Position numbers and translations under genes: made by a program | The notes under the pieces: generated by a model | What the model saw: the letters and a program-made list of their open reading frames with translations, nothing else | The model's database searches: none | What the model was told of the DNA's origin: nothing | Shown here: positions 9,307 through 21,888 of the stretch, piece after piece | How the letters are laid out: the number at the start of each line of letters is the position of its first letter | Numbering within the stretch: the first letter of the stretch is position 1 | NCBI GenBank assembly: GCA_902776195.1 | Contig: CACYPF010000007.1 | Location: forward strand, 9,568-73,567 | DNA from: an uncultured Prevotellaceae bacterium | GTDB taxonomy: Bacteria > Bacteroidota > Bacteroidia > Bacteroidales > Bacteroidaceae | Direction: 5' to 3' | DNA: 64,000 nucleotides

Positions 9307-10718
9307 TTTACAACTCTTTTTTGTTTTTAGTCTGCTTTCCTCTGATATTTCTGTTATATTATTTTATTCCAGCTAAGTATCAGAAAGGGAGGAATATGTT
9401 CTTATTGGTAGTAAGTTATATTCTTTATCTTAATTGGAAACCTATCTATGTTTTAATTCTGCTTGGAGTTACGTTGACAACTTATTTATCGGCATTGCAG
9501 ATAGAGCGTAAGAGAATGAATGCAAGGTGGATTATGATTGTTGGCGTGATGTTGGGACTGTTGCCATTGTTCTTTTTCAAGTATTTCATATTCATCAATG
9601 AACAAGTGTATGAGTTGCTTTCATTGGTTGGATTGAGATATGAGTTACAGGGTTTGAACTGGGCGGTTCCAGTTGGGATTTCCTTTTTCACATTTCAGTC
9701 TATAGGATATGTCTGGGATGTGTATTATAAGAAAATGAGAGCTGAACAGGATTTCCTAACATACGCACTTTTTATCTCTTTTTTCCCATCTATACTTTCT
9801 GGACCAATTAACAAGGCTTCACTGGTAATTCCACAATTGAAAAAGCTCAGACCTTATTTTGATTACGCAAAAGCAGTTGAAGGTTTACGGATGATTTTAT
9901 GGGGTATGTTTATGAAAGTGGTAGTTGCAGATAGAATGGGATTGTATGTTGATACTGTATTGCCTAATTATATGAACTATACAGGTGTGACATGTTTTGC
10001 TGCCAGTTTATTCTACTCAATTCAGATCTATGGAGATTTCGCGGGCTATTCGCTAATGGCAATTGGGGTTGGTAAAATGCTAGGCTTTGAGTTAACAGAG
10101 AATTTTCGAAGACCTTATTTTGCTGTAAGTGTGACAGATTTCTGGCGTAGGTGGCATATATCACTTTCAACATGGCTTAAAGATTATATTTATATCCCAT
10201 TGGGTGGCAGTAGATGCTCAAAGCTGCGTAATTACTGGAATATATTAGTAACGTTTTTAGTAAGTGGTATTTGGCATGGCGCAAATTGGACGTTTGTTGT
10301 TTGGGGCTTATGTCATGGCTTATTTCAAATTGTAGAGAAATTGTTGGGTCAACAGAATTGTAAATATGACTGGTTAGGTAAAAGCATCAAGATTGTTATT
10401 ACATTCTTGTTAATAAATTTTGCGTGGATTTTTTTCAGAATGCCAACTTTGACTGATGCATTTAGTTTGATAAAAAGAATTTTTGATATTTCTCTCCCAA
10501 TGACGTTTTTCTTTGATAGTATAACTACGATGTTTTTTATGATTATAGGACTTGCGATTCTATTATTTAAAGAGGCAATGGAAGAGTTTTTCCCTAATCA
10601 AAAGAAACATCTAACACGTTTTGTCTTGTTAAGATGGGGATGGCAAATTATTGTTCTATCCCTAATTTTGTTGACGGGAGTCTTAGGGTCTGACCAATTT
10701 ATTTATGCAAATTTTTAA
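9303..10718 (+). CDS. MBOAT O-acyltransferase (AlgI/DltB/PatA family)
   Basis: [18 protein letters not shown]-like (FAGYSLMA), [32 protein letters not shown] and [10 protein letters not shown] motifs. Confidence 0.93.
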
Positions 10719-18150: not shown

Positions 18151-18249
18151 TAAGATAGAAGTTCGGTAAAATCGGTAATATTATCTGTAAATGTGGTTGT
18201 GAGATATAATTGGGAATGATTTAATTTTGCAACCAGAATTTAGCAATAA
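18151..18249 (+). repeat. 99-bp exact direct repeat of 19098-19196 (promoter region), copy 1
   Basis: TAAGATAGAAGTTCGG...TTTAGCAATAA identical in both places by eye; contains TAATTTTG -7 element at 18222-18229. Confidence 0.92.
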
Positions 18250-18349
18250 GAATTAGGAAAGCAACTGTTGAATGCTATTAAAGCTGCCCCAAATGATGCA
18301 GCGAGTTATCCTGCTATTAAGGATGTAAGTGTGGACATGAGCCAATATA
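18250..18349 (+). repeat. 100-bp copy of coding segment 19379-19478 of the flavodoxin fusion gene
   Basis: GAATTAGGAAAGCAACTG...GAGCCAATATA matches with one mismatch (GCT vs GCA). Confidence 0.92.
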
Positions 18350-18522: not shown

Positions 18523-19065
18523 TTGCAGGCGAAAGAGCGCGAAGACGTGAGAGAAGAGCTTGAACAATACTTTATTTTATTGTATCAATGTGTACCGCAG
18601 GAGGTTTATGAAGGTCTTCTTTCGGTATTTTGCTTAGGTATAGTTTTATTTGTCGCATTCAAGGGATTAAAAGTTGGTTTCAGGTGGTCGTCAATTCTTC
18701 TGCTAATAGAATACATCTTCTTGCTATTCTGCTCGACAGTCATCTTCAGATCTACAAACGAGGTGAGACGTTACGATTTTCATCTCTTCTGGAGTTATAA
18801 TAGACCTGACTTGTTAGTGGAAAATATCATGAATGTCATTGTATTCATTCCTGTCGGAATGATACTTGGTTCACTGTTAAGGGTTAAGGGTTCATGGTTA
18901 GTTGCGCTTTTGATAGGCTGTAGTATCTCTATCACCATAGAGGCACTACAGTTCTGGTTTATGAGAGGCTTCTCGGAGGTGGATGATGTGATGCATAATA
19001 CGGTGGGATGTTTCGTGGGATACATGCTGGTAAAGATTTCAAGGTTTATTGTTCCTGAATATTAG
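18523..19065 (+). CDS. VanZ-family membrane protein
   Basis: FWSY, ENIMNVIVFIPVG, IEALQF and FSEVDDVMHNTVG motifs; ORF-track start is TTG, exact start uncertain. Confidence 0.85.
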   Translation: MQAKEREDVREELEQYFILLYQCVPQEVYEGLLSVFCLGIVLFVAFKGLKVGFRWSSILLLIEYIFLLFCSTVIFRSTNEVRRYDFHLFWSYNRPDLLVENIMNVIVFIPVGMILGSLLRVKGSWLVALLIGCSISITIEALQFWFMRGFSEVDDVMHNTVGCFVGYMLVKISRFIVPEY

Positions 19066-19097
19066 AGGGTTGTGGTATAGTGAGAAATGAGGTATAT

Positions 19098-19196
19098 TAA
19101 GATAGAAGTTCGGTAAAATCGGTAATATTATCTGTAAATGTGGTTGTGAGATATAATTGGGAATGATTTAATTTTGCAACCAGAATTTAGCAATAA
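19098..19196 (+). promoter_or_regulatory. Promoter region of the flavodoxin fusion gene (copy 2 of the 99-bp repeat)
   Basis: Bacteroidetes -7 consensus TAnnTTTG as TAATTTTG at 19169-19176, 25 nt before ATG 19202. Confidence 0.7.
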
Positions 19197-19201
19197 TACT
19201 G

Positions 19202-21493
19202 ATGGCAATCCTTATGATGGGGATATGCTGTGGAACCAGGGCAAAGACACTGGTTGCATATTATAGCTACACAAATAATGTGAGGACTATCGTGAATGAA
19301 CTGGCCACACAAAAGGAGGTGGATGTGGTTGAGATTCAGTCCGCGGTGGATGGGCAGGACTATGTTGCCAATAACTATGAATTAGGAAAGCAACTGTTGA
19401 ATGCTATTAAAGCAGCCCCAAATGATGCAGCGAGTTATCCTGCTATTAAGGATGTAAGTGTGGACATGAGCCAATATAGTGATGTCATTGTGGCTACGCC
19501 GTTGTGGTGGAGTCAAATGGCCGCACCAATGCAGACGTTCTTGTTTCATAATGGAGCAGCCATGGCAGGGAAGAATATCTGGATGATAGTGTCAAGTGCC
19601 AGTTCGGGTATCAGTGGCGTGGTAGCGGATGCAGAACGGCTAATTCCTAGTGGTAATTTCCAAAGCAATAAATTATGGATAAAGTCTTCACAGGTGCCTC
19701 AGGCTGCAAGCATGCTGAATGAATGGTTGCTTTCCACAAGTCAGGTTGCTCCTGTTGATGGGAGGAAAATGGTGGTACTGTCTGATCCTCATGTGATGGC
19801 TCCTGAGTTACTGGTGAACGAAGGTACTGCGTGGACGACGTACTTGAACGGTCAACGTAAGTTGGTGGATTTTAGCCAGCGTCTGTTTGATGATATGATT
19901 GTACGTGTCAAACGGGATTTGCGTCCGGGACTAGTGCTTATCTCTGGTGACCTGACAAAAGATGGAGAACAGGTTAGTCATCAGTATGTGACAAGAAAAC
20001 TGGATGAATTGAGAGCTATTGGTATACAGACTTTGGTGGTGCCTGGTAATCATGACAGAGGTTCTAACTCTGACGCAGTGTATTATGATGGGGCAACTAC
20101 TACGGCTGCTGCTGTGGCAACGAATGAGTGGTTTGCCACGCAATATGCGAACTATGGCTATGGTGCAGGTTCAGAGCGAGAGGGTACAACACTGACCTAT
20201 GCTTGTGAACCGATTGCAGGGTTGGTTGTGATAGGTATAGACTCGGGTACTGATGGTAATGTTTCGCAAACCACACTGGATTGGGTGGTGGAGAAGGCTG
20301 CTGCTGCCAGGACAAGTGGAAAGAAAGTGATTGCCATGATGCACCATCCGCTGATACCTCACTTTACAGGTGTTGATAATTTTGTAAGTACAGCTGTAGT
20401 AGGAAACTATGAGACGGTACGTAACACTTTGGCTGATGCAGGCATCCGAGTGGTGTTCACTGGACATTTTCATACTTCGGATATTGCCAAGGACTGGAAT
20501 GCTGCCAAGACAAGGGAAATATATGATGTGAATACGGGGTCTCTCATTTCATACCCTTGTGACTACAGAGAGGTAACTATGAGTGCGGACCTGTCGGGAA
20601 TGGCGATAATGACAGGACATAGTACTGCCATAGCATCAGAAACAGCCAAAGAACGGCTGAAGTCTGCGATGCAGGAAAAGATAGCCGCAAAGGGTACGGC
20701 TTATTCTCTAATAGCTTCAACTGCTGCACAGGCGTTTATTATTCATGCTGAGGGTAATGAGGCTGATAATGCTGCTGCCTCCACGACTTTGTCAACACTG
20801 CTGAGTGCTGCTAATATGGGGCAGGCTTTGATTGGTGCAGACAAGGCTCAGGCGCTGAAGGACATGGCGAATAGTATGTTGCAGGATAAGAGCCAGTATG
20901 GTACAGATCGTGAGGATCAGACTAATGACTTGACACTGGGCATCGAATTGCCGGAGGCTATTAAGTTGGCTGCGGACGGTTATTCAACATATTGTTCGGA
21001 GAACAGACTGGATATCAGTCGGACTAATGGCGTGACTGCATATATCGTTAATAACATTACTGAAACAGCTGTTGAGTTGCAGGAGGTCAGTGTGATACCT
21101 GCTGAGACAGGATTTATACTGAAAGGTACTGGAAGTGCATGGTATGACTTGTATAAGACTAACAATGCGGTAGATGATGTGTCAAGTAACCTGCTAATTG
21201 GTACCTTGACAACTACCGCTGCATCAGCAAATACTTTTGCACTGTCAACAAAGAAAGGTGTGACAGGATTCTATCCTGTGAGCACAGGGTTGATGATTCC
21301 TGCCCATAGGGCATATCTCACGTTGTCAGATGGCATGTCAAGATTGCTGACTATTGATGGGGAGACAACTGGAATCGTGAGTGTTCGTGAGGAAGGGGCT
21401 CCTGTGGTGTTCTATAATCTACAAGGTGTCAAGATGCAGAGACCTGCTAAAGGGGTATATATTAGTAATGGTAAGAAAGTGGTCATTAAATAA
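19202..21493 (+). CDS. Secreted fusion: flavodoxin + calcineurin-like metallophosphoesterase + C-terminal T9SS-like sorting domain
   Basis: TLVAYYSYTNNV and ATPLWW (flavodoxin); SDPH, GDLT, GNHD, HHP and GHFH (phosphoesterase); ends TGIVSV...YNLQGVKMQRPAKGVYISNGKKVVIK. Confidence 0.85.
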   Translation: MAILMMGICCGTRAKTLVAYYSYTNNVRTIVNELATQKEVDVVEIQSAVDGQDYVANNYELGKQLLNAIKAAPNDAASYPAIKDVSVDMSQYSDVIVATPLWWSQMAAPMQTFLFHNGAAMAGKNIWMIVSSASSGISGVVADAERLIPSGNFQSNKLWIKSSQVPQAASMLNEWLLSTSQVAPVDGRKMVVLSDPHVMAPELLVNEGTAWTTYLNGQRKLVDFSQRLFDDMIVRVKRDLRPGLVLISGDLTKDGEQVSHQYVTRKLDELRAIGIQTLVVPGNHDRGSNSDAVYYDGATTTAAAVATNEWFATQYANYGYGAGSEREGTTLTYACEPIAGLVVIGIDSGTDGNVSQTTLDWVVEKAAAARTSGKKVIAMMHHPLIPHFTGVDNFVSTAVVGNYETVRNTLADAGIRVVFTGHFHTSDIAKDWNAAKTREIYDVNTGSLISYPCDYREVTMSADLSGMAIMTGHSTAIASETAKERLKSAMQEKIAAKGTAYSLIASTAAQAFIIHAEGNEADNAAASTTLSTLLSAANMGQALIGADKAQALKDMANSMLQDKSQYGTDREDQTNDLTLGIELPEAIKLAADGYSTYCSENRLDISRTNGVTAYIVNNITETAVELQEVSVIPAETGFILKGTGSAWYDLYKTNNAVDDVSSNLLIGTLTTTAASANTFALSTKKGVTGFYPVSTGLMIPAHRAYLTLSDGMSRLLTIDGETTGIVSVREEGAPVVFYNLQGVKMQRPAKGVYISNGKKVVIK

Positions 21494-21502
21494 TCGGGCA
21501 TT

Positions 21503-21643
21503 ATGAAGAAGATATATATGATTCCGCAGGTTGATGTGATTCAACTGAAACTAACTACTCTGGTACTGGTAGGCTCTCCCGATAGTATCCCTTATTCTAA
21601 AGATCCAACAGATGAGATTGACGATCCAGAGGAGATACATTGA
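21503..21643 (+). CDS. Unannotated 46-aa small protein with MKKxYxxP leader-like N-terminus and acidic tail
   Basis: MKKIYMIPQVDVIQLKLTTLVLVGSPDSIPYSKDPTDEIDDPEEIH*; starts 9 nt after the upstream stop. Confidence 0.7.
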   Translation: MKKIYMIPQVDVIQLKLTTLVLVGSPDSIPYSKDPTDEIDDPEEIH

Positions 21644-21718
21644 GGATTATTAGTTTACAAAATTTACAAACTCGGAATCAACCAAAGGTCGAGTACAAGG
21701 TTGGGCTGAAAGAATCTG

Positions 21719-21808
21719 GGTTCATGGTTGATTGTAGCTTTCATAGGCTGTAGTATCTCTATCGTGATAGAGGTACTACAGTTCTGCTTTATGAAAGGCT
21801 TCTCGGAA
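21719..21808 (+). pseudogene. Degenerate vanZ fragment
   Basis: Colinear with 18889-18978, 14 mismatches in 90 nt by hand alignment; reads GSWLIVAFIGCSISIVIEVLQFCFMKGFSE; in-frame stop upstream at 21707. Confidence 0.85.
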
Positions 21809-21888
21809 ATGGAAGGATGCTCATGGAACTTTAATCGGGTTTGGAATAATAATTTTTTTGAGAATAATATTTAAAATAAGATATAAAA

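Follow-up and report, generated by a model that had tools for sequence, protein, structure and literature searches.

A 763-amino-acid protein that joins a flavodoxin-like domain to a calcineurin-like metallophosphoesterase (MPE) is encoded by the open reading frame (ORF) 19202..21493, on the plus strand of the 64,000-nucleotide stretch of contig CACYPF010000007.1 analysed here (the window), which comes from an uncultured Prevotellaceae bacterium. We consider it probable that this protein is an Lmo2642-type phosphodiesterase exported via a type IX secretion system (T9SS) and equipped with exchangeable accessory modules. A Sec signal peptide, which is truncated here but complete in relatives, would lead it to the periplasm, and a shortened type A C-terminal domain (CTD) would then route it via the T9SS to the surface of the cell or into the medium. 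The two-metal phosphodiesterase with its helical lid domain would be the catalytic part and most likely acts on phosphodiesters outside the cell, for instance 2',3'- or 3',5'-cyclic nucleotides or other diesters derived from nucleotides. The N-terminal flavodoxin-fold domain would serve as a conserved exchangeable accessory module, most likely binding a small ligand and carrying no electrons.

The gene is genuine and conserved in rumen Prevotella. A first-pass annotation, made from the sequence alone, had described a single uninterrupted frame with a flavodoxin domain and a calcineurin-like phosphoesterase complete with all five metal motifs, and these statements hold: the frame is open throughout, and a Pfam scan placed Flavodoxin_4 (PF12682) at residues 15-163 with 49.2 bits (gathering threshold 24) and Metallophos (PF00149) at residues 190-425 with 47.9 bits (gathering threshold 21.5). 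The metal motifs D195-x-H197, G249-D250, G282-N283-H284-D285, H381, and G421-H422-x-H424 are invariant in a family alignment of 26 sequences, and H382 is nearly so. An NCBIfam scan of the protein gave only weak matches below threshold. The structure model shows helices at residues 480-560, within the domain that accompanies the MPE core, and all-strand structure at residues 580-660, with a predicted local distance difference test score (pLDDT) of ~84-89. The beta-rich domain ahead of the C-terminal tail found no match in Pfam, NCBIfam, or PDB, and a PDB sequence search with residues 465-763 also returned nothing.

Both sequence and fold place the enzyme closest to Lmo2642. By phmmer, the nearest solved relative is 2XMO (Lmo2642), matched by residues 187-463 with an E value of 1.2e-28. 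The same structure ranked first in Foldseek (E value 1.5e-14; template modelling [TM] score 0.58 normalised to the target, obtained with a query model of mean pLDDT only 67.7). This match extends over 369-378 columns of the 409-residue 2XMO chains and includes the helical domain, while purple acid phosphatase, SMPDL3A/B, and GpdQ were lower-ranking fold matches. Lmo2642 is a cyclic nucleotide phosphodiesterase according to Kim et al. (2011), as cited in PMC4320098, and appears among Listeria surface proteins (PMC2679221). A search with the whole protein revealed that the MPE and helical core (residues ~185-590) is widespread, with 654 representative clusters at E <1e-30; most of the best 150 of these match the MPE and helical part. 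Other proteins, of up to 3205 residues, combine the core with BspA-type leucine-rich repeats, Listeria-Bacteroides repeats, GLUG motifs, or a tyrosine-phosphatase-like domain. Such combinations are what one expects of an enzyme module at the cell surface. A likeness to UshA, cited in the first-pass annotation as a calcineurin-like enzyme that converts FAD to FMN, was not confirmed, as no UshA-type 5'-nucleotidase C-terminal domain appeared in the Pfam or NCBIfam scans of the protein and its resemblance is to Lmo2642. An identity as 'anti-phage phosphoesterase' was also considered and rejected as superfamily resemblance only: the NCBIfam score was 43 bits versus 420, and PADLOC matched neither the protein nor the 46-amino-acid ORF behind its gene.

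The C-terminal tail probably connects the protein with type IX secretion. A hidden Markov model (HMM) built on its last 58 residues identified 42 ORFs in the 2.97-Mb genome that end with the same motif, at most 6 residues from the stop codon. The shared pattern is TGI..V, then Y(N/D)L.G.(K/R)V, then KG(V/I)YI.NGKK..IK. The short-tail ORFs examined carry Sec signal peptides and include a GH53 galactanase, an alpha-amylase with CBM26, and a CotH protein, and the genome encodes the T9SS components SprA, PorU, PorV, and GldM. TIGR04183, the curated T9SS type A model, detects 6 proteins in this genome, none of which is among the 42. When aligned by hhalign with the canonical CTDs of the genome, the short-tail profile scored a probability of 74.6% across 22 columns, and a gap of 15 residues separates the Y.L.G hairpin from the G.Y.V strand; this gap may explain why the 72-position TIGR04183 model misses the tail. 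On TIGR04183, whose cut-off is 23 bits, two paralogues that share the motif and have longer loops reach 13-15 bits. Among the orthologous secreted flavodoxin-like proteins, P0260, P0195, and P0194 end in the short tail, whereas P0218 carries a true TIGR04183 domain (34.3 bits) at the tail position. Because orthologues thus bear either one or the other, a shortened T9SS type A CTD is the most likely identity of the tail, as far as sequence comparison can tell. In the relatives P0070 and P0085, a dockerin, another extracellular anchor, takes the place of the beta domain and the tail.

The N-terminal signal is abnormally short in this assembly, which lacks 28 bp present in all other contigs seen; the missing bases, TCATTTAATATGAGAACAAGAAGGTTAT, were not found anywhere in the whole assembly. 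They contain the ancestral ATG and the basic n-region MRTRRLL. Five contigs with the intact 28 bp (L001 and L006-L009) encode MRTRRLLL, though some of their products are also called at 763 amino acids despite the upstream ATG in the DNA. A short signal peptide without a basic N-region, pointed out in the first-pass annotation, is therefore true of this assembly, and its cause is the missing 28 bp. In an alignment of relatives, the full N-terminus reads MRTRRLLLMAILMMGICCGTRA or MSKTRRLLLLAFLLIGICCGVSA, in both cases continuing with KT beyond the cleavage site, and so appears to be an ordinary Sec-type signal, its n-region basic and its cleavage site of the A-x-A type. The predicted cut falls after TRA here and after VSA or LSA in relatives. 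A lipoprotein reading of MGICC was rejected, since Cys is missing at this place from several relatives, in which VSA or LSA comes before K. Compared with contig L006 over 8.3 kb, the window shows one mismatch and two deletions, of 28 and 64 bp, and both deletions begin right after GCAATAA, the end of both copies of a perfect 99-nt repeat. As the deletions start exactly at the repeat end, this pattern could be an assembly artefact, and the 28-bp deletion may be either that or a real allele. Two metagenome scans, one with the deleted and one with the intact junction, gave no match for either and are uninformative on this point. Whichever its origin, the gene family has an ordinary signal peptide. 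The surroundings are variable as well: at 9920-9921, L001 is without 134 bp of window positions 18981-19114 (the vanZ end and the start of the 99-nt repeat), and several small indels occur in this region among otherwise near-identical strains.

The flavodoxin-like domain directly follows the signal peptide and would thus be exported together with the enzyme. Foldseek matched it to 4J8P, 3KLB, and 4ICI with TM scores of ~0.7 normalised to the target. Its phosphate loop is SYTNNV, compared with SCSGVT in 3KLB, SWSGET in 3EDO, and SATGTT in 4J8P and 4ICI; the conserved Gly and the final Thr of the canonical S-x-[ST]-G-x-T after strand 1 are lost. In a loop census, 63 of the 66 fusion proteins had TNNV, and a few stand-alone relatives retained TGNC or TGNT. 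ApbE attaches flavin covalently to some extracytosolic Flavodoxin_4 proteins at an insertion after strand 1, which has been argued to stop the flavin from diffusing away (bioRxiv 10.1101/2024.03.13.584918). This genome encodes ApbE and riboflavin synthase. In the alignment to 3KLB and 4J8P, neither an insertion between strand 1 and helix 1 nor a flavinylation motif was present. Given the SYTNNV loop and the missing insertion, redox use is unsupported, and these sequence features favour a ligand-binding accessory role of the domain over electron transfer. Literature searches returned no paper naming PF18050 and none on flavodoxin together with cyclophilin-like proteins in Bacteroid* taxa; for flavodoxin and type IX secretion, the titles and abstracts retrieved contained nothing related.

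Conservation of the fusion and exchange of its modules go side by side. The same junction recurs in dozens of clusters and in independent metagenome-assembled genomes (MAGs) of rumen Prevotellaceae and Bacteroidales, at 58-100% identity. Against four relatives, the flavodoxin-like domain has a nonsynonymous divergence (dN) of 0.075-0.106 and a ratio to synonymous divergence (dN/dS) of 0.04-0.08, and the enzyme a dN/dS of 0.02-0.06; these ratios are rough, since dS is saturated in this comparison. The flavodoxin-like domain is about as constrained as the enzyme and is no relic. Alignment also identified relatives at ~83% identity in the common parts that have no flavodoxin-like module, and others in which Cyclophil_like2 is inserted between the catalytic core and the helical domain, either along with the flavodoxin-like module or as the sole insert. 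Free-standing versions of the modules that are fused to the enzyme in relatives are encoded at C11:145853-146584 and C11:125318-125962 of this genome. The genome also encodes a lipoprotein Flavodoxin_4. Proteins with Flavodoxin_4 and Cyclophil_like2 are common among the representatives, most of them with a signal peptide. Relatives of the 763-amino-acid protein come almost entirely from MAGs of rumen Prevotella, Prevotellaceae, and other Bacteroidales, with a distant one in Segatella bryantii (43% identity). No full-length match was found in any other genome among 24 species representatives of the genus, and the gene is therefore accessory.

The gene had been assigned to a capsule locus, and polysaccharide genes do lie on both sides of it. 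Upstream, on the same strand, are genes for a flippase, EpsG, a TarI-like cytidylyltransferase, LicD, a TagF-like transferase, MBOAT, and GT4, followed by a Bac_transf initiating transferase, a decarboxylase-like gene, an ATP-grasp gene, and vanZ; DegT and a CapD-like gene follow downstream, also on the same strand. The same locus is present in the five contigs with the intact signal sequence. The neighbours of close relatives are varied, comprising a DegT fragment with defence-type genes, HU and an amidase as well as a transposase with CapD, or sugar-nucleotide genes. CapD, DegT, or UDP-glucose dehydrogenase (Ugd) genes often stand beside these relatives, and LicD or TarI-like genes occur within 8 kb in only two other loci. 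A candidate promoter is provided by TAATTTTG at 19169-19176, which, as read from the sequence, fits the Bacteroidetes -7 consensus TAnnTTTG. Taken together, the capsule link of the gene is weak, and the gene, its candidate promoter, and the 46-amino-acid ORF look like a cassette lodged at the margins of capsule loci and variable islands, with no fixed membership in a capsule pathway.

Coordinates of the gene, its parts, and associated features (window positions unless prefixed C11)
Feature	Position	Strand	Basis
Truncated Sec signal peptide, MAILMMGICCGTRA	19202..19243	+	alignment reading
Flavodoxin_4-like domain, residues 15-180, non-canonical phosphate loop SYTNNV	19244..19741	+	Pfam; PDB relatives 4J8P, 4ICI, 3KLB, 3EDO; loop census; dN/dS
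Binuclear metallophosphoesterase core, Lmo2642 type, residues 187-463	19760..20590	+	Pfam; 2XMO; Foldseek; motifs
Helical domain accompanying the MPE core, residues 466-585	20597..20956	+	structure model; Foldseek
Beta-rich domain preceding the tail, residues 586-712	20957..21337	+	structure model
Short C-terminal sorting motif (putative), residues 713-763 and stop codon, TGI..V ... YNLQG.K(V/M) ... KGVYISNGKKVVIK	21338..21493	+	HMM
Site of 28-bp deletion relative to all other contigs seen; absent bases TCATTTAATATGAGAACAAGAAGGTTAT	19196..19197	+	alignments
99 nt ahead of the gene, identical to 18151-18249	19098..19196	+	sequence; repeat search
Decayed second copy of the 5' end of the gene: exact 99-nt promoter region and 98% copy of codons ~59-93	18151..18349	+	repeats; sequence
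vanZ fragment, 84% copy of the vanZ 3' part (18888-18983), downstream of the gene and small ORF	21718-21813		repeat search
46-amino-acid ORF, MKKIYMIPQVDV...DPEEIH, beginning 9 nt past the stop codon of the gene	21503..21643	+	conservation
Stand-alone protein, 235 amino acids: signal peptide, flavodoxin-like domain (59% identity), short tail	C11:145853-146584	-	same genome
Stand-alone Cyclophil_like2 protein with the same short tail	C11:125318-125962	+	same genome

The flanks of the gene bear traces of rearrangement. The remnant of its 5' end sits between the ATP-grasp gene and vanZ, and hence the duplicated candidate promoter now points at vanZ. In L001 and L006, this remnant still has the ATG and the signal peptide codons. 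Together, the remnant and the vanZ fragment suggest a decayed tandem duplication of a unit composed of the gene, the small ORF, and vanZ. The small ORF itself lies directly behind the gene in L001, L004, L010, L011, and L017, with equal length, 47-100% identity, and a C-terminus of DPE[DE]IH or DSEDIH; in L005 it is interrupted by a stop. No family, PADLOC, or other assignment was found for it.

Several other explanations were weighed. The enzyme might split flavin adenine dinucleotide (FAD) or a similar dinucleotide, with the flavodoxin-like domain capturing flavin mononucleotide (FMN) or riboflavin for uptake or extracellular electron transfer. In line with this, the domain belongs to Flavodoxin_4, its relatives 3KLB and 3EDO were deposited with FMN, TGNT or TGNC loops persist in a few members of the secreted subfamily, and the aromatic loop P-L-W-W is retained; moreover, Flavodoxin_4 proteins outside the cytoplasm exist elsewhere. 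We nevertheless regard such flavin handling as quite unlikely, considering the near-universal replacement of TG.T by TNNV in the fusion proteins and the lack of an ApbE-type insertion or flavinylation motif. In addition, relatives at ~83% identity manage without the module, the riboflavin synthase of the genome makes flavin scavenging unnecessary, and the enzyme has no C-terminal domain of the UshA type. The related proposal of the first-pass annotation, that FMN is generated and bound for extracellular redox chemistry, therefore gained no positive support. Its suggestion of a recent accidental fusion is refuted. The homologues are not confined to pairs of separate genes, and a chance union of two unrelated genes, or a misassembly, is highly improbable in view of the recurrence of the junction across many clusters and independent MAGs and the strong purifying selection on both parts, even though close relatives exist both with and without the flavodoxin-like domain. 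Furthermore, it is this domain that the signal peptide precedes, not the enzyme, as a single exported protein would lead one to expect.

A different substrate is suggested by the location of the gene between capsule genes of the same strand: the enzyme might cut phosphodiester bonds of the teichoic-acid-like polysaccharide made by LicD and TagF in this locus, and thereby trim, release, or remodel it. PhoD, an enzyme of metallophosphatase fold, cuts wall teichoic acid in Bacillus subtilis, and the frequent proximity of close relatives to CapD, DegT, or UDP-glucose dehydrogenase genes fits this idea. Yet the gene has its own candidate promoter, duplicated together with its 5' end, and in contigs L002-L005 the cassette lies beside defence-type genes, HU and an amidase, or a transposase. 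Besides, the enzyme keeps ~85-89% identity across loci whose polysaccharide genes differ, which speaks for a shared substrate and against a capsule-specific one. Trimming of this polymer, also put forward in the first-pass annotation, thus finds no support in the genomic context, where LicD or TarI-like genes are so seldom near the cassette, and we judge it unlikely. Finally, the copy in this genome might be an export-defective or decaying allele, started from an internal Met and left with a weak signal peptide after the 28-bp loss. The deletion is seen only in this assembly, and the 5'-end remnant and the vanZ fragment are decay products close by. The remaining ORF, however, is identical to intact alleles and has no stops or frameshifts, the leftover hydrophobic core and TRA site may still function, and both deletions abut the repeat end in DNA that otherwise equals that of L006 bar one mismatch, as an assembly artefact could produce. 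A decaying allele is, in our estimate, distinctly improbable.

The interpretation as a T9SS-exported Lmo2642-type phosphodiesterase has points against it as well. By the curated criterion, the tail is not a member of the type A CTD family. Neither TIGR04183 nor PF18962 nor any other Pfam or NCBIfam model matched a T9SS domain in the whole protein (E up to 1) or in C-terminal pieces (E up to 10), so that of the 'T9SS-like sorting domain' originally recognised, the recurrent C-terminal motif stands and a T9SS domain detected by a curated model does not; the check proposed for it, an HMM of the TIGR04183 type, came out negative. The seven-stranded Ig-like fold of type A CTDs was looked for in a structure model of the tail (last 95 residues; built from 38 tails of this genome), which had a predicted template modelling score (pTM) of 0.37 with only the final hairpin confident, and Foldseek with this model returned no match at E <2 and no CTD structure among its results. 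In the Foldseek alignment, no more than ~23% of the residues are identical to those of Lmo2642, and the substrate is thus not transferable with confidence. The retained P-L-W-W loop would be compatible with flavin binding, and without a basic n-region export may be impaired in this assembly. On balance, we retain the exported phosphodiesterase as the best explanation. From the first-pass annotation it keeps the domain order and the view that the enzyme is exported to the surface, while the accidental fusion and the FMN-based redox role are left behind.

These findings do not overturn current understanding; they provide a well-defined lead and no surprise. With 6 proteins detected by the curated model and 42 more by the short tail, T9SS cargo of rumen Prevotella, including carbohydrate-degrading enzymes, is probably under-annotated, and a model of the short tail would help to mend this. 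Exported flavodoxin-fold domains of Bacteroidales combine an altered phosphate loop with the absence of a flavinylation motif and often have cyclophilin-like partners, and the question of their ligand has seemingly never been asked. The enzyme with and without each accessory module, at ~83% identity, offers a natural comparison for module function. It is tempting to speculate, although we think it rather unlikely, that flavodoxin-fold and cyclophilin-like modules displayed on the cell surface through the T9SS, alone, paired, or mounted on an Lmo2642-type phosphodiesterase, constitute a so far undescribed family in rumen and gut Bacteroidales that may act together to capture and cleave a flavin- or nucleotide-like small molecule, with the flavodoxin fold re-used extracellularly as a non-covalent ligand receptor instead of an electron carrier.

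Comparison with known systems shows both similarities and differences. Like the T9SS type A CTD (TIGR04183/PF18962), the tail forms the very C-terminal end of many secreted, Sec-dependent enzymes encoded by a genome with the T9SS, and it shares with the canonical CTDs of its own genome the elements Y.L.G..V and G.Y(I/V) ... K...K and the upstream TGI..V. It differs in its conserved stretch of ~50 residues, compared with a 72-position model, with ~15 residues fewer between the two hairpins, and in scoring below every curated threshold. With the Flavodoxin_4 proteins of Bacteroides and Lactobacillus (3KLB, 4J8P, 4ICI, 3EDO), the N-terminal domain has in common the fold, the Pfam family, and the aromatic loop P-[ILV]-W-W. 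Those proteins are small (~150-170 residues) and carry the loop S-x-[ST]-G-x-T, whereas the domain described here comes after a signal peptide, forms part of a fusion with an enzyme, and shows SYTNNV instead. The ApbE-flavinylated extracytosolic members of Flavodoxin_4 likewise reside outside the cytoplasm, as predicted here, but are distinguished by a strand 1-helix 1 insertion with a covalently flavinylated Ser/Thr (bioRxiv 10.1101/2024.03.13.584918); our protein has neither this insertion nor the motif.

Lmo2642 of Listeria monocytogenes remains the best match in both sequence and fold. It has the same two-metal calcineurin-like core followed by a helical domain and the same extracytoplasmic location, which is predicted in our case, and offers no match to the flavodoxin-like domain, the beta domain, or the T9SS tail. 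Listeria lies outside the one phylum to which the T9SS is restricted, as stated in a review (PMC10202324). Within this secretion system, a metallophosphoesterase of Riemerella anatipestifer has been reported as T9SS-secreted (Niu et al. 2021, cited in PMC10202324). It is reported as a phosphatase linked to virulence, for which the review mentions no flavodoxin-like module. A T9SS-secreted metallophosphoesterase is thus already known, and the variant with a flavodoxin-like add-on is new.

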